DNA of 26,902 nt from an uncultured Pseudomonadales bacterium (lineage in GTDB: Bacteria > Patescibacteriota > Microgenomatia > UBA1400 > PJMF01), in assembly GCA_964635585.1 (NCBI GenBank), contig CAZWOQ010000001.1:1-26902 (forward strand). Reading direction: 5' to 3'. The position numbers were made by a program, and so were the translations under genes. Below the pieces are notes generated by a model. That model worked only from the letters and a program-made list of their open reading frames with translations, ran no database searches and was not told where the DNA came from. Of the stretch, positions 3,176 to 26,902 are shown in pieces; within the stretch, counting starts at the first letter, position 1; every line of letters starts with the position of its first letter.

Positions 3176-3754
3176 TTAGACCAAGCGAAAACCGCGAGCT
3201 TCACCTAAGTGGAGAAATCCATCAAAATCCAGCAAAGTTCCTTGAGTTTTACATTCAATGAATTGGATTCCCTCGGTGTTGGTTCCAGAAAAATTGCTTT
3301 CGCGAAGATTACAGTGATCAAAACAAGTTTGCCGCAGTTCGCTTCCGGTAAAAGCGACCTTTTGCAGATCGCAGTGAGCAAAAACACTTCTTTCAAGTTG
3401 GCAGTCAGTAAATTCTGAGTCGCGCAGATCCCAAGTTTTCCAAAGTCGATCCCGCTCGTTTTTGAATTGTTGAAAGAGCGAATTTTCAATAATGGCCTGT
3501 TGAAAATGACAAGAACGAAAATTGACAGGAGAAAAGTCAAGGTTACTGAGTTTACTGCCAGGAAATTGACAATTTTCAAAAAGACTGATGGCAAAATGGA
3601 CAGCAGTGAAATCACAGCTTTCAAAGCGGCAGTGAAAAAAACTACTGAGCTTCAAGTCAGCGCCAGAAAACTGGCAGTGCAGGAAAGTCTGATTTTCAAA
3701 GGTTTCACCTTGGAGTTCATGGGCAAAGTGCAGGTTTTTGAAATCAGGTCGCAT
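3176..3754 (-). CDS. Pentapeptide-repeat protein (Qnr/MfpA-like)
   Basis: 192 aa of tandem (S/A/C)-x-F/L-x-x pentapeptides (ADLKL SSFFH CRFES CDFTA...), ending in a helix-like segment GTLLDFDGFLHLGEARGFRLV. Confidence 0.9.
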   Translation of the reverse strand: MRPDFKNLHFAHELQGETFENQTFLHCQFSGADLKLSSFFHCRFESCDFTAVHFAISLFENCQFPGSKLSNLDFSPVNFRSCHFQQAIIENSLFQQFKNERDRLWKTWDLRDSEFTDCQLERSVFAHCDLQKVAFTGSELRQTCFDHCNLRESNFSGTNTEGIQFIECKTQGTLLDFDGFLHLGEARGFRLV

Positions 3755-4215: not shown

Positions 4216-4244
4216 AGTATAGCATATTTAGCCTGGAAATTCAA
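4216..4244 (-). promoter_or_regulatory. sigma70 promoter of ssrA
   Basis: TTGAAT (4244-4239), 17 nt, then TG-c-TATACT (4221-4216); it lies 16 nt upstream of the mature 5' end. Confidence 0.75.
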
Positions 4245-4912
4245 GTTTTTTTGCTGGCGACGGCCAAGATGCTGATTTGTTGGGGACCAGCCAGGCGGAG
4301 CGCCTGGCTGGCCATATTTACTGTGGCTCCCGTGGTAAAAACGTCATCGAGTAAAAGGATTTTTTTGTTGGTCAGTTGTGTTTTTACCTCTGGTTTCAGT
4401 AGAAAAACACCTTGCATTCGCTCAATGCGTTTTTTTTGATGAGAGACTTGAGCTTGGGCAGTCAGATAGCGTCTTCTTTCGAGGCAATCAAGATAAGGAA
4501 TCTGACTGAGCTCTGCCAGATGCTGGGCAATGGCAGCGGCTTGGTTATAACCGCGTTCCCGAAGTTTTTCTGGGTGCAGTGGAATGGCAGTGAGATAGTC
4601 AGCTGGCGGAAATTTCAAATGTTGCCAGAGCAGTTCTGCCAAGTATGGGGCAACATTTTTCGCGCCAGCGTATTTCAGTTGATAAATTAACAAGGAAAGC
4701 GGTTTTTGTAGTTGGGCCAAAATGCAAACTTGGTCAAAATAAAGCGGACCAAGACTGTTGGCCAAACTGCGTTGACTGGGATTTTGCCAGATGAACTCAA
4801 TCCCATGTTGGCAGTCATGACAGAGAAAGTTCTCCAAACGTTGGCAAGAAAGACAGCTGGGAGGATAGAGGCAATCTAAGAGAAAAGTCCGAATTTTTTG
4901 CCAAGTTAGCAT
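4241..4912 (-). CDS. comF: ComF family protein (zinc ribbon plus phosphoribosyltransferase-like domain)
   Basis: N-terminal CLSC...LCHDC; PLHPEKLRERGYNQA; PRPP motif ILLLDDVFTTGAT. Confidence 0.93.
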   Translation of the reverse strand: MLTWQKIRTFLLDCLYPPSCLSCQRLENFLCHDCQHGIEFIWQNPSQRSLANSLGPLYFDQVCILAQLQKPLSLLIYQLKYAGAKNVAPYLAELLWQHLKFPPADYLTAIPLHPEKLRERGYNQAAAIAQHLAELSQIPYLDCLERRRYLTAQAQVSHQKKRIERMQGVFLLKPEVKTQLTNKKILLLDDVFTTGATVNMASQALRLAGPQQISILAVASKKT

Positions 4913-6722: not shown

Positions 6723-7367
6723 ATGAAGACGCAGAGCGTAGGTGAACTTCTTTCAGCGGCTCGACAGCGGGCACGGCTTTCTCTCGAAGATCTTGCGGTG
6801 GAAACGCGGATCCAGTCAGAGTATTTAGAGGCTCTTGAAGCAAATGACTTTGAAGTTCTTCCAGAAGCAGTTTTTGTGAAAGCAATGATCCGCAATTATG
6901 CTCGGGTTTTGTCTCTTGATGCGGCTCCACTTTTGGCGGTGTTGCGGCGAGACTATGAAGAAAGTGCTCGTGGCCAACTTATTCCTCGAGAATACTTATT
7001 TCCCGTTTTACGAAAAAGACAATTTTGGTCGCCAGTGCGGCTTTTGGTGCTTGCTGCCGTAGCGGTTTTCGTCATGGTAAGCGGTTATGCTGCTTGGAAA
7101 TGGTACCAAATGAATCGTCCACCAGAGCTTATTGTTCAAGAACCCACAGAAGCTGCCGTAGTTTCAGCAACATTGCAAGTCCAGGGGAAAAGTACAGCAG
7201 ATACTGTCGTGACGGTGAATGGACAGCCCGTGGCATTGCGACAGGACGGCTCCTTTACGGCTGAAGTAAATTTCCCAGAGGAAGGGCCGACTAATATCAG
7301 CATTAAAGTAACCGACAAAAAAGGGCGAAGTAGTATGGTCCAACGCTCAGTTTTGGTGCAATTCTAA
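6723..7367 (+). CDS. RodZ-like protein: XRE/HTH_25 domain, TM helix, extracellular Ig-like domain
   Basis: VGELLSAARQRARLSLEDLAVETRIQSEYLEALEANDFEVLPEAVFVKAMIRNYARVLSLD is the RodZ HTH pattern. TM is LLVLAAVAVFVMVSGYAAW. The C-terminus is beta-rich (PPELIV...VTVNGQ...DGSFT...IKVTDKKG). Confidence 0.85.
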   Translation: MKTQSVGELLSAARQRARLSLEDLAVETRIQSEYLEALEANDFEVLPEAVFVKAMIRNYARVLSLDAAPLLAVLRRDYEESARGQLIPREYLFPVLRKRQFWSPVRLLVLAAVAVFVMVSGYAAWKWYQMNRPPELIVQEPTEAAVVSATLQVQGKSTADTVVTVNGQPVALRQDGSFTAEVNFPEEGPTNISIKVTDKKGRSSMVQRSVLVQF

Positions 7368-7782: not shown

Positions 7783-8110
7783 AACGGCAGCTTCGCTGGT
7801 GACCTTTACCTCAGCTTTTGCTTTGGGAGCTCTCTTGTCGTATTTTGCGACGCCAGCGGGTAAGAAAACCTGGCGAAAACTTGCTAAAGAATGGGAAAAG
7901 GCTCGTCAAGAGCTCTTCAATCAAGGTTTGATTCCCGATGCCAAAATGAGTCTGGATGAATTTCGAGAAAATTATGTCAGTTTGTTGAGTGGATCGCTGC
8001 AGGGCCTCAAGGAAAGTTGTCAGGGGTTTCTTGATCTCAGTAAACAGGTTCTCCAAGAGAAAAAAGACGCACGCAAAAAGCGTAAAAAGTTTACCTTCAA
8101 AGGTGTTTGA
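7757..8110 (+). CDS. YtxH-like protein (start uncertain: 7757 preferred; 7742 or 7697 possible)
   Basis: FTSAFALGALLSYFATPAGKKTWRKL resembles the YtxH motif (GalxG...LlAPxxGxxxRxxl) and is followed by a helical, charged tail. It overlaps the upstream ORF by 26 nt. Confidence 0.65.
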   Translation: MKEPVSENKTAASLVTFTSAFALGALLSYFATPAGKKTWRKLAKEWEKARQELFNQGLIPDAKMSLDEFRENYVSLLSGSLQGLKESCQGFLDLSKQVLQEKKDARKKRKKFTFKGV

Positions 8111-8148
8111 GCAGAGTTTGGGGCCGGCCGCCGTTCTGGTTGTTGGCC

Positions 8149-8157
8149 TGCTATAAT
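8149..8157 (+). promoter_or_regulatory. Extended -10 element 6 nt before the alaS ATG (leaderless)
   Basis: TG-c-TATAAT (8152-8157), agcgcc, ATG at 8164. Confidence 0.7.
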
Positions 8158-8163
8158 AGCGCC

Positions 8164-10083
8164 ATGTCAAATCTCTCTCTTATTCGTCAAAAGTACCTAG
8201 AATATTTTCGGCAGCTCCATACGGCGGCCGGCCAAGATTTCTCTCACGCCATTGTGCCTTCGGTGAATTTGGTTCCGGAAAATGATCCGACGACACTTTT
8301 TACTTCTGCAGGCATGCAGCCGATGATTCCTTATTTTTTTGGTGAGCCGCATCCTTTGGGAAAACGAATCGCAAATTCCCAGAAGTGTTTTCGTGCGGAG
8401 GATATTGAGGAAGTTGGTGATAATCGTCACACAACTTTTTTTGAGATGTTGGGCAATTGGTCTTTGGGTGATTATTTTAAGAAGGAGCAGATTGCATTTT
8501 TCTTTCGATTTTTAACAGAAGAAATTGGTCTTGATCCGCGGCGTCTCTATGTGACGGTTTTCGCGGGGAATAAGCAACTTGGTATTCCCCGAGATGATGA
8601 AGCGGCGGCGACTTGGCAGAAATTGTTTGCGGAGGCAGGGGTTGAGGCAAAAATTGTCGAAAATCCTGAGAAGGGTTTGCAAGAGGGTCGAATCTTCTTT
8701 TATCCAGAAAAAAAGAACTGGTGGTCTCGTTCGGGTGTACCAGATAAGATGCCAGTTGGTGAACCGGGTGGTCCTGATAGTGAAGTTTTCTATGACTTTG
8801 GCAGCTTGCCAGCTTTTGCGGAAATTCATGAACATTCACTGTGGGCTGATCAACCTTGCCATGTGAATTGTGATTGTGGTCGATTTTTGGAAATTGGAAA
8901 TTCAGTTTTCATGCAATATCAGCGTAGCGAGCAGGGTTTTGAACCGCTGAAACAGCAAAATATTGACTTTGGGGGTGGCTTAGAGCGTATTTTGGCAGCT
9001 TTTGAGAATCAGCCTGACATTTTCCAGACAGACGCTTTTTTGCCGATAATTCGGTCTTTAGCGGGCTTAGCAAACAGCACTTACGCCGAGCAGCCTGCAG
9101 CCTATCGGATTGTGGCAGATCATTTACGAGCGAGTGTGATGCTCATCCATGATGGTGTCTTGCCAAGTGGTAAAGAGCAGGGCTATGTTTTGCGGCGTTT
9201 GCTGCGTCGAGCCATGCGCCAGGGGCAAATGCTTGGGATTGACGGGAATTTTACGAGTCAATTGGTTCCCAGTGTGATTGAAATTTATGCTGATTTTTAT
9301 CAGGAGCTTTCTGCAAAAGCTGCTGAAATTGCTGACATTATTGATCAAGAAGAGAAGAAATTCCGTCAGAGTATGCAAAGGGGTTTGCGTGAATTTGAAA
9401 AAATGATTGTTGGCAAAGATCAACTGACCGCGGAGTTAGCTTTCAAGCTCTACGAAAGCTATGGTTTTCCTTTTGAGCTTTCTATTGAAGAGGCGAAGAG
9501 CCGTCAGCTTGATTTAGAGGTTGGTCTTGAGGAGAAGATTGCCGAAAGACGGCAAGCTCACGCGGCGCTTTCTCGTTCTGCTTCGGAACAAAAGTTTAAG
9601 GGTGGTTTAGCAGATCAAGGCGAACTGACGACGCGTTTCCATACGGCGACGCATCTTTTGCATGCTGCTTTGCGACAAATTCTTGGTGAAGCGGTTGGAC
9701 AAAAGGGTTCGAATATTACGGCAGAACGTTTGCGTTTTGATTTTTCTTTCCCTAGAGCGCTTAGCGAAGCCGAAAAAATAGCAGTCGAAGATCAAGTAAA
9801 TGCTTGGATCAAAGCAGATTTGCCTGTTACTCGTCAAGAAATGCCAAAAACCGAGGCGCTGAAATCTGGAGCAATTGCTTTCTTTTTAGAAAAGTACCCA
9901 GAACGAGTTTCGGTGTACACGGTTGGTCAGCAACCTGATGGGCAAAAAGGCAAGGATTGGATTTCGAAGGAATTTTGTGGTGGGCCACACGTGACTCACA
10001 CTGGCGAAATTGGGAAAATTCATATCTTTAAAGAAAAAGCAGCGGCGGCAGGGGTACGCCGAATTTACGCTACTTTTGCGTAA
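8164..10083 (+). CDS. alaS: Alanine--tRNA ligase, short form (639 aa): catalytic and editing domains, no C-Ala domain
   Basis: DPTTLFTSAGMQP; QKCFR...RHTTFFEMLGNWSLGDYFK; motif 3 GGGLER; GYVLRRLLRRA; YGFP; editing motifs HTATHLLH and CGGPH; ends at GVRRIYATFA. The start is moved from 8107 to 8164 on promoter geometry and homology. Confidence 0.96.
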   Translation: MSNLSLIRQKYLEYFRQLHTAAGQDFSHAIVPSVNLVPENDPTTLFTSAGMQPMIPYFFGEPHPLGKRIANSQKCFRAEDIEEVGDNRHTTFFEMLGNWSLGDYFKKEQIAFFFRFLTEEIGLDPRRLYVTVFAGNKQLGIPRDDEAAATWQKLFAEAGVEAKIVENPEKGLQEGRIFFYPEKKNWWSRSGVPDKMPVGEPGGPDSEVFYDFGSLPAFAEIHEHSLWADQPCHVNCDCGRFLEIGNSVFMQYQRSEQGFEPLKQQNIDFGGGLERILAAFENQPDIFQTDAFLPIIRSLAGLANSTYAEQPAAYRIVADHLRASVMLIHDGVLPSGKEQGYVLRRLLRRAMRQGQMLGIDGNFTSQLVPSVIEIYADFYQELSAKAAEIADIIDQEEKKFRQSMQRGLREFEKMIVGKDQLTAELAFKLYESYGFPFELSIEEAKSRQLDLEVGLEEKIAERRQAHAALSRSASEQKFKGGLADQGELTTRFHTATHLLHAALRQILGEAVGQKGSNITAERLRFDFSFPRALSEAEKIAVEDQVNAWIKADLPVTRQEMPKTEALKSGAIAFFLEKYPERVSVYTVGQQPDGQKGKDWISKEFCGGPHVTHTGEIGKIHIFKEKAAAAGVRRIYATFA

Positions 10084-10219: not shown

Positions 10220-12445
10220 ATGCCAAATATTCTGCCTTTTTCTCCGCCAAAAGACCGTTCTGAAAAAAATACGGTTTCTGAACCACTGGCTACGTCGGGT
10301 AAAAAACAGTTTTTTTTCACGATTATTTTGACTGATACCCTCCTGCAGTCAGCTTTAGTTGCAGGTTCGGAACAGGGTGCGCAGGTTAAAGAAGTATCTC
10401 AAATTCACAAGTATTTTGACCGTAAGGACTTATTAGAGCAACTTGACCAGAGTTTGCAGGAGCTTGGTCCAGATTCCGAAGATGTCACGGAAACGGTTTT
10501 TGCTTTTGATCAGAATTGGTTACAAGATGGGGAATTAAAAGACGACAAAAAAGTCATTGTCAAAGAACTTGCTGAACAGCTAAGTCTCGAGGCTTTGGGA
10601 CAATGTAGTATTCCTGAAGCATTGGCGGAAGCGCGCCTGATGGCCAATGAACACGATTCTTGCTTTATTTTTTATTTACAAGAGCAGCATTTCCAGTTAG
10701 TTTTTCTCAAGCATGGGCAGCTGTTGGATGTTTTGTCTATTGGTCGCTCAGCGCATTTTTTGGCAGATGCGACAGAAGCTTTTGCTCGCGCGGCGAAAGA
10801 TCTTCGGGAAGATGGCCAATATTTCCCAGAAAAAATTCTTTTGTGTTCTTTGGTGCTTTCTGACAAAGAATTACAGAATTTACGCCAAGAATTGGCAAAG
10901 TTCTCTTGGACAGAAAACCCTGGTTTTCTCCAGACTCCAGATATTGCAGTTCTTGAAGGTGATTATATTATCAACTCCATGAGTCTTGGTGCGGGTAAAG
11001 TGTTGACAAATCAATCCTTTCATCAAGTAGAACCCAAAAAAACACCTGTTGAAACTTCTCCGATCGCTCCAGAAAATCCAGCAGAATTTGCTGAAAAGCC
11101 CAGTGAGCTTGCTCCAGTTTCGGCAGCGGACGAGGAGTTAGCGGTGGAGCTTCCAGAGGCAAAGAGCTTTGGCATTCCTTTCTCGAAACAGTATTTTGAG
11201 CAACGTGCTTTGGATCCTCTGCCCGATCAAAAATCTTCAGCGGAGACAAGTAAGCCAAGCAAAAAACGGAGTCAATGGCAACGCTTTCTTTTACAACACA
11301 AAAAGGCTTTGATCTTCGGAGCCTTGAGTGGTTTTTTGGCTTTGCTCCTCTTGTTGGTGCTGTACAGTTTCTTTTTTGCCAAGGTACTCATAACAGTTTC
11401 GCCAAAAACGCAACTTTTGCAGGAGGAAAGCATGATTACGCTTGCCCCCAACGCTGAATCTTCGGATTATCAAAAGTTGCTCCTAAAAGCGAGTCTTGAG
11501 GAAAAAACCCTCAGCGGTGAGGATGTTTTGACCACTACTGGCGTTACATTGGTTGGTGATAAAGCTACCGGCAAAGTTACGCTGTTTAATAAAACGAAAG
11601 CGGAAAAGACTTGGAACGCGGGAACACAGTTAACTGCGGATGGCGATTTACATTTTGTTTTTAATGAAACAGTGACGCTGCCCGCGGCCACGGAAAAATC
11701 TGGGGGTGATGGTTTAGATTATGGTAAACTTGAAACTTCTGTAACGGCAGCTGAGATTGGTGCGGAAAGTAATTTGAAAAAAGAGACAAAACTTCGTGTT
11801 GATAATAGCTACGATGATGAGTTTTCAGCGACCGTACTTGAGGATTTCACTGGTGGTTCGAGCCGAGAAGTGAAAGTTGTTGCTAAGGAAGATCAAGACA
11901 AATTGGCGGAACAATTAGCGGAAAAACTGAATCAAGAAGCACTCAAAGAGTATGCCGCGGCAAATGGCGGTGGAACCTATTATGTTCCTACGGGCATCTA
12001 TAGTTTTGCGAGCAAAAATTTTTCCGCAAAGGTTGGTGACGAAGCTGATAGTCTTACGCTGAAAGCAGATTTGAATGTTCAAGCAGTGAAATACACTTCT
12101 TCAGACCTCAAAGAATTAGCCTATGAGGTGTTGAAGAATGAGTTACCAGAAGGCTATGAGTTTTCAAGCGAAGATCCCAGTTTGCTGAGTGATGCTGCGA
12201 GTGCTTCGGCAGATGCTGAGACGATTCAAATGAAGGTTCAGATTAGTAATAAAGCGCAGGCAAAAATTGATCAAGATGCGCTTCGCGCAAGTTTGTTGGG
12301 TGAATCCCTGGAGTCAGCCAAACAACAGCTCGCTAATAATCAAGCTCTGAGTCAATATACCTTGCACTATCAGCCGGCTTTTCTGGATCGTTTGCTTTCA
12401 ACTTTACCAAAACAGAGTCAGCGTTTGCTTATCAAAGTTGAGTAA
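10220..12445 (+). CDS. 741-aa bitopic membrane protein: degenerate actin/FtsA/PilM-like N-domain, TM helix, baseplate-J-like extracellular domain
   Basis: The N-terminal beta-beta-beta-alpha pattern (FFFTIILTDTLLQSALV; ETVFAF; CFIFYLQEQHFQLVFLKHG) has no DxG phosphate motif. A P/E/S-rich linker leads to a TM at about aa 364-386. The C-domain KATGKVTLFN...AGTQLTADGDLHFVFNETVTLP...VTAAEIGAESN...DFTGGSSRE resembles Baseplate_J. These domain calls are by eye. Confidence 0.6.
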   Translation: MPNILPFSPPKDRSEKNTVSEPLATSGKKQFFFTIILTDTLLQSALVAGSEQGAQVKEVSQIHKYFDRKDLLEQLDQSLQELGPDSEDVTETVFAFDQNWLQDGELKDDKKVIVKELAEQLSLEALGQCSIPEALAEARLMANEHDSCFIFYLQEQHFQLVFLKHGQLLDVLSIGRSAHFLADATEAFARAAKDLREDGQYFPEKILLCSLVLSDKELQNLRQELAKFSWTENPGFLQTPDIAVLEGDYIINSMSLGAGKVLTNQSFHQVEPKKTPVETSPIAPENPAEFAEKPSELAPVSAADEELAVELPEAKSFGIPFSKQYFEQRALDPLPDQKSSAETSKPSKKRSQWQRFLLQHKKALIFGALSGFLALLLLLVLYSFFFAKVLITVSPKTQLLQEESMITLAPNAESSDYQKLLLKASLEEKTLSGEDVLTTTGVTLVGDKATGKVTLFNKTKAEKTWNAGTQLTADGDLHFVFNETVTLPAATEKSGGDGLDYGKLETSVTAAEIGAESNLKKETKLRVDNSYDDEFSATVLEDFTGGSSREVKVVAKEDQDKLAEQLAEKLNQEALKEYAAANGGGTYYVPTGIYSFASKNFSAKVGDEADSLTLKADLNVQAVKYTSSDLKELAYEVLKNELPEGYEFSSEDPSLLSDAASASADAETIQMKVQISNKAQAKIDQDALRASLLGESLESAKQQLANNQALSQYTLHYQPAFLDRLLSTLPKQSQRLLIKVE

Positions 12446-12466: not shown

Positions 12467-13414
12467 ATGGCCAAGAAACAAAAAGGCAATTCGCTTCCAG
12501 TCAATAAAAAGAGTTTAGTTTCCCTCTACCGGGAGGCTTTGGTGGCAGGTGTTTCTCTCGAGGACCTTGATCAAAAAGTTGAAAAATTCGCGGCTCGCAA
12601 ACAATTAAAAAAAGAGTTTGAACAGGAAGTTGACGAGACTTTTCAGGATAAACTTTGGGGTTTGCCTCGGATTTGGCGCAAAGTCAGCGCGGCGTTGCCT
12701 ATTTTTTTAATGATCTTAGGAATGGGCCTAGCGCTTTCTGCACTTTGGCCAATTTTGAGTCATTATTTACCCAAAACTTCAGGGAATGATTTACTTTCTC
12801 CGATTAGTGAAGCGCATCCGATTGAAGCCAAAACAAATATTGTTTATGCCCAGAAACTGAGTGAGGAAAGCTATGGTCAGGCAGAAGTGCTGGATGAACC
12901 AGTAATTTCTAGTAAAGGTTTGGATTACAGTGATTTGCGAAACTGGTTTGCTGAAGATACAAATTTAGAAGCAGATTCTGAGGATTCCTTGGAGGAGTAC
13001 CGAATTGATATTCCTAGTCTAAAAGTGAGTAATGCGATGGTTCGCGTTGGTGGAACGGATTTGAACAAAAATTTGATCCAGTATCCGGGTACGGCTTTAC
13101 CAGGGCAACAGGGGGCACCAGTAATTTTTGGCCACTCAGTTTTGCGGCAATTTTATAATCCTTCGGAAAAGAATTCCAAGCGCTATGGGTCAATTTTTAG
13201 TACGATTATGACCCTAAAAGAAGGTGACGAGATTTTTGTCACCTACAAAAATGTCAAATATACCTATCGAGTTGTCAGTCATACGGAAGTAAAACCCACC
13301 GATACTTTCATTCTTGCCCAGCGTTACGATGCTCGCCAGCTTAAATTGGTAACTTGTGTCCCCGAAGGAACCACTTTACGTCGAGGCGTGGTGACTGCAG
13401 AATTAATAAAGTAA
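12467..13414 (+). CDS. Membrane-anchored sortase (class D/E-like)
   Basis: TM ALPIFLMILGMGLALSALWPIL; RIDIPSLKV; catalytic His in VIFGHS; Cys in LKLVTC; Arg in TTLRRGVV. SD-like AGAGGA upstream, and it starts 21 nt after the 741-aa gene. Confidence 0.9.
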   Translation: MAKKQKGNSLPVNKKSLVSLYREALVAGVSLEDLDQKVEKFAARKQLKKEFEQEVDETFQDKLWGLPRIWRKVSAALPIFLMILGMGLALSALWPILSHYLPKTSGNDLLSPISEAHPIEAKTNIVYAQKLSEESYGQAEVLDEPVISSKGLDYSDLRNWFAEDTNLEADSEDSLEEYRIDIPSLKVSNAMVRVGGTDLNKNLIQYPGTALPGQQGAPVIFGHSVLRQFYNPSEKNSKRYGSIFSTIMTLKEGDEIFVTYKNVKYTYRVVSHTEVKPTDTFILAQRYDARQLKLVTCVPEGTTLRRGVVTAELIK

Positions 13415-13476: not shown

Positions 13477-13893
13477 ATGCAAGCAGTTCTCGGTATTGAT
13501 TTTGGTAAAAAAAGAATTGGTACAGCAATCAATTTTTCTGATATGGCTGAACCATTAGAAGTAGTTGCTAATGAATTCCAATCAGCGGAACAGCCCGTTT
13601 CCTTGGCTGCTCTTCAGCGTTTACGAGAAATTTGCCAGGAACGGCGAATTGAGCAATTAGTAGTGGGGGTATCTGAACAAGAAATGGCTGGATATAGCCG
13701 TCATTTTGGTCAAATTCTCGCCCAAGAAACCAATTTGCCCGTGGCTTTTGTCGATGAAACGCTGACTTCTCGAGAAGTGGCTCAGCGTTTACTTGAATCA
13801 GGAGCTTCATTGCAGAAGCGCCAAGGGCCGATTGATCATTTTGCTGCGGCACTCATTCTTGAAGCTTGGCTTGATCAAGCAAATCTTGGCTAG
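13477..13893 (+). CDS. ruvX: Putative pre-16S rRNA nuclease / Holliday-junction-resolvase-like RuvX (YqgF)
   Basis: VLGIDFGKKRIGTA; LVVG; FVDETLTS; IDHFAAALILE. Confidence 0.93.
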   Translation: MQAVLGIDFGKKRIGTAINFSDMAEPLEVVANEFQSAEQPVSLAALQRLREICQERRIEQLVVGVSEQEMAGYSRHFGQILAQETNLPVAFVDETLTSREVAQRLLESGASLQKRQGPIDHFAAALILEAWLDQANLG

Positions 13894-13976: not shown

Positions 13977-14957
13977 ATGCCAAAAAAGTCAAAGAAGAAA
14001 TTCCTTAGTATTTCATTTGCTCTTGTCATTCTCTTGGTTTCTGCGACCGTTGTGGTGATCAGTTCGCTGGCTGCACCCAGTCCAAAACTCACGAAAACTG
14101 AGCGTTTTGTGATTCCTAAAGGGCAATCTATCGCTGGAATTGCTGAACGTCTCGAGGATGCTGGTCTTATTCGCAGTCATTGGGCTTTTCGTCTTTGGGT
14201 GAGCAAAAACCAGTTGCAAAATAAAATTCAAGCAGGAAGTTTCGAATTAAGTGACAATTTAACTCTGCCAGAATTGGCTCTCGCTCTTACTCGAGGGACT
14301 GATGATCTTTGGGTGACAGTGCCAGAAGGCTGGCGACGAGAAGAAATTGCAGCCAGTTTGGCGAAACAGGAGCTGAGTGAATTTGACGAGAAGGAGTTTC
14401 TGCAACTGACGACAGGTCTTGAGGGACAACTTTTCCCTGATACCTATTTGCTGTCCAAAGAAAGTAGTACGAAAGCGGTGGCGCAATTATTTGCCAACAC
14501 TTTTGAAAGTCGAGTGAAACAGGGTTTAGCTACCCAACTTGCAGAGGCCCAGATGTCGCTTAATGAAGTGCTCACCCTTGCTTCTCTGGTGCAACGTGAA
14601 AGTGCCAATGAAGCGGAAATGCCTCTGGTAGCAGGAATTCTTCTAAATCGTATGGAAATTCAGATGCCGCTTCAAGTTGATGCCACTTTGCAGTATGTGA
14701 AAGCAACCGGGGCTAATGGTGATTGGTGGCCTGATGCTTTGGCAGCGGACAAGGAACTTGATTCTCTCTACAATACCTATCAACACGCTGGTTTACCGCC
14801 AGCACCAATTTGCAATCCTGGTTTAGACGCGATTAAAGCGGTTCTTTCTCCAGAGAAAACTTCTGCCCTCTATTATCTTCATGATAGTCAGGGACAGATT
14901 CATACCGCGCAAGACTTGGCAGGTCATAATGCCAACGTAAACAAATACTTGCGCTAA
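13977..14957 (+). CDS. mltG: Endolytic transglycosylase MltG
   Basis: N-terminal TM; IPKGQS...IQAGSFEL; VTVPEGW; LEGQLFPDTY; catalytic ASLVQRE; NRM...PLQVDAT; YNTYQHAGLPPAPICNPG; LYYLHD. Confidence 0.95.
   Translation: MPKKSKKKFLSISFALVILLVSATVVVISSLAAPSPKLTKTERFVIPKGQSIAGIAERLEDAGLIRSHWAFRLWVSKNQLQNKIQAGSFELSDNLTLPELALALTRGTDDLWVTVPEGWRREEIAASLAKQELSEFDEKEFLQLTTGLEGQLFPDTYLLSKESSTKAVAQLFANTFESRVKQGLATQLAEAQMSLNEVLTLASLVQRESANEAEMPLVAGILLNRMEIQMPLQVDATLQYVKATGANGDWWPDALAADKELDSLYNTYQHAGLPPAPICNPGLDAIKAVLSPEKTSALYYLHDSQGQIHTAQDLAGHNANVNKYLR

Positions 14958-25790: not shown

Positions 25791-26902
<1,112 letters not shown>

Follow-up and report, generated by a model that had tools for sequence, protein, structure and literature searches.

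A class-wide fusion of an actin-fold domain and a membrane-anchored ectodomain within a near-universal module of Patescibacteria

In a stretch of 26,902 nucleotides of contig CAZWOQ010000001.1 (the window, by which the whole stretch is meant), one gene on the forward strand encodes P0001, a protein of 741 amino acids (aa) in which an actin-fold domain is joined through one transmembrane (TM) helix to an ectodomain carrying a baseplate-J-like barrel. P0001 represents a real, class-wide fusion of a near-universal and unstudied module of the Patescibacteria. The module shows a Rosetta-stone pattern: elsewhere in the phylum it is made of two genes, which are fused in Microgenomates with the small STAS-like domain of the membrane protein gone and with the nucleotide site and the subdomains 1C and 2B of the actin fold lost. 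An earlier sequence-only reading of the DNA had assumed a host from the candidate phyla radiation (CPR), and we agree on a Microgenomates-type, Pacebacteria-like CPR bacterium, because the nearest named relatives come for the most part from bins of Ca. Pacebacteria/Woesebacteria and other Patescibacteria; such bacteria are ultra-small and parasitic. A Microgenomates-type locus is also carried by records titled "uncultured Pseudomonadales" (L032, L042 and many others; one is titled "Methylococcaceae" and one "TM6"), which are probably mislabelled or contaminated bins.

Distribution of the fused and the two-gene form

By profile search the family was found in 183/201 Patescibacteria genomes (~91%) and in 164 of the 174 good ones, mostly as one copy, and with the family profile E<=0.001 was reached by 9,654 clusters (50% identity). 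In the class of the host, the fused N-domain is present as a single copy in 114/121 genomes. Outside this class the gene is split into an FtsA paralogue, which we call FtsA2, and a gene encoding the STAS domain, the TM helix and the ectodomain: an FtsA2 gene of ~415 aa lies directly upstream in 47 out of 52 non-fused loci, which were fetched from the better-scoring matches and not at random, and it mostly overlaps its neighbour or leaves a gap of <30 nucleotides. Intact FtsA2 (E<=1e-60) occurs in 135/201 genomes, the STAS N-domain in 147/201 and both in 132, and neither was detected in the genomes of the host's own class (0/11), all of which bear the fusion; these tallies were counted from tables with profiles built from 46 of the same genomes, include related genomes that are not independent, and take in the unpublished genomes G154 and G258, which are used for no other claim. 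The non-fused genes of the FtsA2 module usually follow alaS and often precede ruvX-mltG. Downstream of the 52 non-fused loci ruvX was seen in 29, mltG in 19 and an rpsM-rpoA block in 16, and an adjacency to mltG nearly throughout the phylum is not supported by these data.

A counterpart of the two-gene form is present in Southlakia epibionticum, for which published tables give the order alaS, SEML1_0656 ("PilM"), SEML1_0655 ("baseplate J/gp47"), ruvX and mltG, with the true pilM (0104) and ftsA (0174) located elsewhere (10.1101/2023.05.02.539146). Both genes are flagged as core and CPR-enriched, and for SEML1_0655 Table S2 lists a SpoIIAA-like domain (e1t6rA1, 0.888), a barrel, a G3P-like domain and gp6 C-terminal domain III (DPAM 0.864); the pair appears only in the tables, baseplate, FtsA and PilM being absent from the main text (10.1101/2023.05.02.539146). 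In transposon-insertion sequencing (Tn-seq), the reads in SEML1_0655 went from 40 to 9, 1 and 2 (TRANSIT adjusted p 0.003, 0.0007 and 0.001) (10.1101/2023.05.02.539146). Locus order, sizes (427 and 556 aa) and the barrel, G3P-like and gp6 C-terminal domains are the same as in the module described here; in contrast to P0001, the Southlakia locus has separate genes, one of FtsA type and one with a SpoIIAA-like domain, and lacks a sortase next to them. This orthology is judged by synteny, size and architecture, as the sequences were not aligned. A literature search found no paper discussing the module.

Several loci deviate from these two forms. In L144, L150, L194 and L195 (family f29) the membrane protein has no STAS domain and starts with M-R-D-I straight after alaS, and no FtsA2 was found. 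The inner module may have given way here to a short peptide; NCBI lists the L144 protein under Andersenbacteria. Families f22 and f44 have a ~390-aa gene upstream that was considered as a diverged FtsA2 but encodes a phosphoglucose-isomerase-like protein, and what looks like a 1003-aa alaS-FtsA2 fusion in G194 results from a gap filled with N. The family was mostly not found in f14 (1/8) and f10 (1/3), which comprise larger, less complete and possibly Gracilibacteria-like genomes. In L188:3512-4644 (G081), FtsA2 is present as two adjacent open reading frames (198 and 176 aa), reflecting a frameshift, a sequencing error or a real split. Eroded phosphate motifs on long branches are seen for the FtsA2 proteins of L122, L123, L126, L128, L192:3653-4774 and L193:3265-4386, which belong partly to the clade of the WWE3 member L121 and partly to two other families; their ATP site may have decayed independently or before a fusion.

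Inner domain of P0001, FtsA2 and the STAS-like domain

The architecture of P0001 is as follows, with all features on the forward strand:
10220..12445, forward: P0001, actin-fold / TM / baseplate-J-like-ectodomain fusion, 741 aa (stop-free frame; single copy in the genome)
10295..11017, forward: cytoplasmic minimal actin fold, aa 26-266 (model, structure match, hhalign to FtsA2, conservation)
11018..11305, forward: acidic/proline-rich linker with a basic juxtamembrane end (sequence)
11165..11176, forward: linker motif S-F-G-[IVFL], aa 316-319 (conservation; fused proteins only)
11306..11380, forward: one TM helix, aa 363-387, N-in/C-out (hydropathy, K/R bias)
11381..12442, forward: ectodomain, aa 388-741, read as an out-and-back stalk of alpha/beta modules bearing a beta-barrel (model with a predicted local distance difference test score, pLDDT, of 96)
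11555..11863, forward: beta-barrel, aa 446-548, common to GlxA domain 2 and the baseplate gp6/J barrel (structure matches, Pfam)
12272..12442, forward: C-terminal alpha/beta module, probably the portion aligning with the gp6/J C-terminal domain (structure alignments)

An AlphaFold2 model of aa 26-266, calculated from an alignment of 150 homologues (pLDDT 94), matches the actin-like ATPase fold in VIA and Foldseek comparisons, best PilM (2ych; VIA Z 17.0, root-mean-square deviation (rmsd) 2.6 Å, 211 residues) and FtsA (3wqt; VIA Z 16.8, rmsd 3.1 Å, 222 residues), as anticipated by the sequence-only reading, which had seen an actin-like strand pattern. Both RNase-H-like lobes of the actin-like ATPase superfamily, 1A and 2A, are present (VIA Z 15-17 over 211-222 residues), although the domain spanning them is ~130 residues shorter than PilM and FtsA. 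It aligns with the FtsA2 family (hhalign prob 98.5, E 1.8e-15), with which it specifically has a W...F...P tail motif in common, and the profile alignment to FtsA2 reveals a deletion of subdomain 1C and of the larger part of 2B. The phosphate-1 motif DxG, the absence of which had already been noted, is replaced by I36-L37-T38, the phosphate-2 motif DIGGGT (Y152...) and the adenosine motif GGG (S210...) are lost as well, and all three are unconserved across the 150 fused homologues. Because of these deletions and replacements it is well supported, as far as sequence can tell, that the N-domain is ATPase-dead. Sequence searches of the PDB with full and half alignments of the P0001 family gave no match, nor did NCBIfam for P0001, and Pfam gave no consistent match for the N-domain. 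What is conserved in the fused N-domain is a patch comprising G175-R176-S177, D183 (100%), E186 (97%) and A189-R190.

The position of the TM helix, predicted earlier at about aa 364-386, is placed by hydropathy at aa 363-387 (Kyte-Doolittle peak from aa 363, 2.75) following a basic stretch, and the orientation with the N-domain inside and the second domain outward agrees with K/R residues being more numerous before the helix than after it in 55/60 homologues. The linker is, as described before, acidic, being rich in E/P/A/S at aa 267-345, and its SFG[IVFL] motif occurs in 137/187 fused versus 0/52 non-fused proteins, which makes it a candidate intramolecular ligand. At the C-terminus of P0001 there is no LPxTG-like motif followed by a hydrophobic segment and a basic tail; the genome scan for sortase substrates did not return P0001. 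A promoter scan of the locus stayed at chance level, and terminator-like sites were uninformative.

In contrast to the fused domain, FtsA2 has intact DIG, DIGGGT and GGG motifs and keeps 1C, with the phosphate-site Asp in 44/46 and 45/46 and G336 in 46/46 sequences. In the tree a long branch with support 100/100 sets FtsA2 apart from canonical FtsA. It scores 112-120 bits against TIGR01174 (cut-off 175.85), and most FtsA2 genomes as well as the genome of P0001 carry canonical FtsA in addition. In E. coli FtsA, R300 and E303 bind the FtsZ tail, a role reportedly described by Pichoff and Lutkenhaus in 2007 and in PDB entry 4A2A. At these positions Arg is present in 0/46 and Glu/Asp in 1/46 FtsA2 sequences, compared to 12/12 and 12/12 in canonical CPR FtsA. 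FtsA2 carries a hydrophobic V/W patch instead, position 303 being V/I/L and position 304 Trp in 44/46; many members also have an amphipathic-looking C-terminal tail. A complex model of FtsA2 and the STAS domain of locus L134, calculated with self-made alignments, scored 0.67 versus 0.00 for the best control, a mark reached by 58/80 solved complexes and 2/110 mismatched pairs. Its runs share at least 97% of contacts with a partner pLDDT of at least 84, and the interface consists of FtsA2 residues 251-264 and 299-310, including the helix that bears R300/E303 in FtsA. The model supports that the STAS domain would dock on the former FtsZ-binding face of FtsA2; no solved FtsA-STAS complex is known to us. 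In the fused domain, the conserved GRS/D183/E186/R190 patch maps to this docked face, and since the STAS domain is gone, this suggests that the patch might bind a new ligand.

The STAS/SpoIIAA-like label of the non-fused N-domain is taken from the Southlakia Table S2 (10.1101/2023.05.02.539146) and fits its strand/helix pattern; neither Pfam nor PDB sequence searches of this domain gave a match, and only Asn44 is at least 90% conserved. This label, together with inner modules that differ by lineage, is compatible with trans-membrane signalling, in which the ectodomain would sense the state of the wall or the host and relay it via swappable inner modules (STAS and FtsA2, a dead actin fold or a kinase). 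Atlas leads outside Patescibacteria have similar ectodomains (feature scores 0.84-0.85, TM-score 0.48) and include a cluster of Ser/Thr kinases of 834 aa that is commonest in Chloroflexota and in which every second member has Baseplate_J. However, the SpoIIAA phospho-serine position is not invariant, the conserved neighbour families contain no kinase, phosphatase or regulator, and the kinase match has a TM-score <0.5 and is unconfirmed by sequence, so that we consider signalling quite unlikely. A search for long alternative ectodomain fusions found none, which is weak evidence, the Chloroflexota kinase fusion being an Atlas lead only.

Outer domain and its relation to baseplate wedges

In the ectodomain model of aa 388-741 long N-terminal strands pair with later alpha/beta modules and the barrel is inserted at aa 446-548, which we read as a predicted out-and-back stalk with the barrel at its distal end. 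The ectodomain is homologous to those of the non-fused proteins (348 columns, prob 100), and its conserved residues are mostly Gly, Pro or otherwise structural without a variable adhesin-like tip. Pfam Baseplate_J matches aa 447-550 marginally (E 1.8e-4, 21.3 bits vs the cut-off of 21.1), as it does in 28/35 homologues; in a set of 61 ectodomains, Pfam GlxA was found in 26/61, Baseplate_J in 29/61 and PHROG 6 in 29/61. The top structural match for the barrel is Streptomyces GlxA (PF21110; PDB 4unm, 5lxz; Z 13.0-13.7, 22-23% identity), a cell-surface copper-radical oxidase with which only the accessory barrel is in common, next to Mu gp47 (Z 12.7, rmsd 2.1 Å, 90 residues); gp6/J proteins of baseplates give Z 10-13 at an rmsd of 2-3 Å over ~90 residues. 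In many of the wedge alignments the match continues for ~50 further residues at the C-terminus, to model residue 353/354. The middle module is SHS2/dodecin/G3P-like (Z 7-8; phage IKe G3P pilus-binding domain Z 7.8). A PASTA-like reading of the last module was dismissed, with 0 PASTA matches among the 61 ectodomains.

These matches bear on the possibility of a true domesticated baseplate wedge that would still form a ring or an injection-like envelope apparatus. The barrel and the putative C-terminal module follow the same order as in many baseplate J, gp6 and Mu gp47 wedges (PF04865; PDB 9ki1, 8v3w, 8kea, 5iv5), and PHROG 6 is matched by nearly half of the members. The N-terminal helical core bundle of the wedges, which serves heterotrimer formation, is in contrast unmatched: phage residues before ~74-100 are left out of every alignment, the chain ranges of all matches start at residue 74-155, and at the corresponding position the model has beta-strands and a TM anchor instead. 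The domain arrangement differs as well, with TM-scores of only ~0.23 for the whole ectodomain against phage wedges and viral proteins. Sheath and gp25 genes (PF04984, PF04965) were found neither in the window nor in the genome (95.5% complete), which upholds the earlier statement that this is no prophage; the window contains no tube or spike genes, for which no genome-wide search was made. A collection of 50,697 phage records gave no tblastn match to the family, and FtsA2 was not found in the viral contigs searched. The baseplate link is real at the level of domains, and of the gpJ-like outward domain of ~350 aa that had been proposed, the barrel and ~50 C-terminal residues stand and the rest of the ectodomain does not. 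The "domesticated baseplate module" is unproven: the core bundle is absent, the TM-scores are low, the barrel resembles GlxA as closely as the wedges or more so, and no further part of a baseplate turned up. A complete wedge is not supported by the data, and a wedge apparatus appears extremely improbable.

Neighbourhood and possible role in the envelope

The P0001 gene is surrounded by conserved neighbours, all on the forward strand:
8107..10083, forward: alaS, short form, conserved upstream neighbour (61/70 class loci, 49/60 phylum loci)
12467..13414, forward: sortase, 21 nucleotides downstream of the P0001 gene (Pfam E 4e-20; His/Cys/Arg motifs visible; 80/81 Microgenomates loci)
13477..13893, forward: ruvX/yqgF, conserved downstream neighbour (68/71 class loci)
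13977..14957, forward: mltG (YceG) endolytic transglycosylase, often but not always present (60/71 class loci; 19/52 non-fused loci within ~5 kb)

Among the neighbours, the sortase, mltG and LysM/CHAP act on the wall, and rpoB and rpoC also lie downstream. The ftsA-ftsZ genes of this genome are located on contig C21 apart from P0001, and pilM is also encoded elsewhere. The alanyl-tRNA synthetase comprises 658 aa and stops right after the editing (SAD) domain without C-Ala, lengths of 560-700 aa recurring across the fetched loci. The genome contains a second sortase (contig C118:1201-2139, L197) and a candidate sortase substrate, a 180-aa protein that ends in LPVSG, a hydrophobic segment and a basic tail and has no Pfam match (C68:661-1203, L196). 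On the reverse strand, the window further encodes a pentapeptide-repeat protein (3176-3754), a ComF-like zinc-ribbon/phosphoribosyltransferase protein (4241-4912) and a 171-aa open reading frame with no Pfam match (26247-26762).

Several systems resemble the module in its principle. GspL/EpsL of the type II secretion system and PilM-PilN (PilM PDB 2ych, 5eou) tie a cytoplasmic actin-like domain to one TM helix and an extracytoplasmic domain, GspL also being ATP-blind, and in MreB-RodZ a bitopic protein with an outer beta domain binds an actin homologue through its small cytoplasmic domain. By analogy the module appears to work like these, yet it falls outside FtsA, PilM/GspL and baseplate J. 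FtsA (TIGR01174; PDB 7q6d, 3wqt, 1e4f) has the actin fold in common, but FtsA2 does not adjoin ftsZ and, as described above, forms its own clade without R300/E303, and P0001 is TM-anchored and differs further by lacking 1C, 2B and the ATP site. GspL keeps SHS2/1C, has a small ferredoxin-like outer domain and belongs to a gsp operon, whereas P0001 combines the deletion of 1C with a 350-aa stalk and barrel at a housekeeping locus. Compared to MreB-RodZ, the actin is of the FtsA type with 1C, STAS replaces the helix-turn-helix (HTH) adaptor and the ectodomain is unrelated. A RodZ-like gene (HTH_25 and an Ig-like domain) is present at 6723-7367 on the forward strand, 2.8 kb upstream. The best mreB match of the genome (C4:1904-2878) reaches 119 bits against the TIGR00904 cut-off of 366, and MreB may be divergent here. 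In L134, L139, L165 and L169 an mreB-like gene follows a few genes downstream of FtsA2-membrane-ruvX-mltG, giving two actin homologues per region.

The module could also be another PilM/PilN- or GspL-like platform, serving a type IV filament, a competence system or a secretion machine whose genes lie elsewhere, which would be in line with PilM as a top N-domain fold tied with FtsA, with GspL as a known dead-actin/TM fusion and with the NCBI name of the Southlakia gene. We regard it as very unlikely, however, given that the true pilM is separate both in the host genome and in Southlakia, that in sequence FtsA2 resembles FtsA (E 6e-31) more than PilM (7e-22 to 2e-15) and that no pilus genes occur among the recurrent neighbour families identified, P0001 adjoining alaS, sortase, ruvX and mltG rather than a pil/gsp operon with PilN/O or GspM.

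The explanation that we favour, with about even chances of being right, is an FtsZ-independent trans-membrane envelope scaffold that is separate from the pilus and the Z-ring. A scaffolding role in the envelope had been suggested before, and the fold matches, the wall-acting neighbours and the separate ftsA-ftsZ and pilM genes are in accordance with it, as are the Rosetta-stone pattern, the position of the FtsA2 gene directly upstream, the long branch and missing R300 of FtsA2, the docking model and the depletion of SEML1_0655 in Tn-seq. Bound to the membrane, FtsA2 would form an ATP-dependent filament or cluster and thereby place the stalk protein, which would extend into the peptidoglycan layer, where the barrel might bind wall polymer or wall-acting enzymes and in this way organise local wall growth or anchoring. 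In the host's class, the covalent tether may have made docking and polymerisation needless and turned the domain into a static adaptor. Its GRS/D183/E186/R190 patch could have gained another ligand, possibly the SFG motif of the same protein or the tail of the sortase, and the adaptor would localise sortase-dependent wall anchoring.

Several points weigh against such a scaffold. P0001 carries neither a catalytic domain nor a known wall-binding one, which leaves an outside ligand inferred, and the docking was modelled for the two-gene version and not for P0001. The actin part is not obligatory: because families f22, f44 and f85 keep STAS without FtsA2 and f29 has neither, the membrane protein is the core part of the module. 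In the Southlakia Tn-seq data SEML1_0655 is outside the strict 79-gene set, SEML1_0656 shows a delayed defect only (reads 325, 1364, 219 and 18) and mltG is dispensable without significant change (3879, 11871, 5549 and 1380) (10.1101/2023.05.02.539146). Insertions in SEML1_0655 could moreover be polar on the overlapping ruvX. As mltG is dispensable and is replaced downstream by rpsM-rpoA in 16/52 non-fused loci, its link to the module may be positional.

The same depletion during on-host growth, the core and CPR-enriched status of the family, the likeness of the middle module to the IKe G3P pilus-binding domain, the barrel in common with baseplates and the surface display suggested by the sortase would also suit a component of host contact or attachment, in which the barrel at the stalk tip would bind the host surface and the actin side would organise the contact site of the epibiont. 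On-host Tn-seq, however, cannot tell growth from attachment, the ectodomain has no variable adhesin-like tip, and similar ectodomains occur in Chloroflexota-dominated Atlas clusters of mostly free-living bacteria (a lead at TM-score 0.48); we consider this role unlikely.

Starting from the envelope scaffold, we tentatively put forward as a possibility that the module is a third, FtsZ-independent actin-based envelope machine beside the divisome and the elongasome, in which an FtsA paralogue would have swapped its FtsZ site for a STAS partner on a stalk sharing ancestry with wedges. The machine would be needed for growth, perhaps for making the host-contact site, and in the Microgenomates fusion would have become an ATP-independent, sortase-coupled scaffold. 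The model predicts that FtsA2 does not bind FtsZ and that residues around V303/W304 bind STAS, and the counterpart in the genetically tractable S. epibionticum, like others misnamed "PilM" and "baseplate J" in databases, offers access to such questions. The fusion is a natural experiment in which a cytoskeletal ATPase has, class-wide, become a dead adaptor within a fused protein. It also prompts one to ask whether barrels of the cell surface and wedge domains of phages have been exchanged, and which way such a transfer went. Envelope building and host attachment in Patescibacteria are problems of long standing, and this module is among their most conserved uncharacterised genes.

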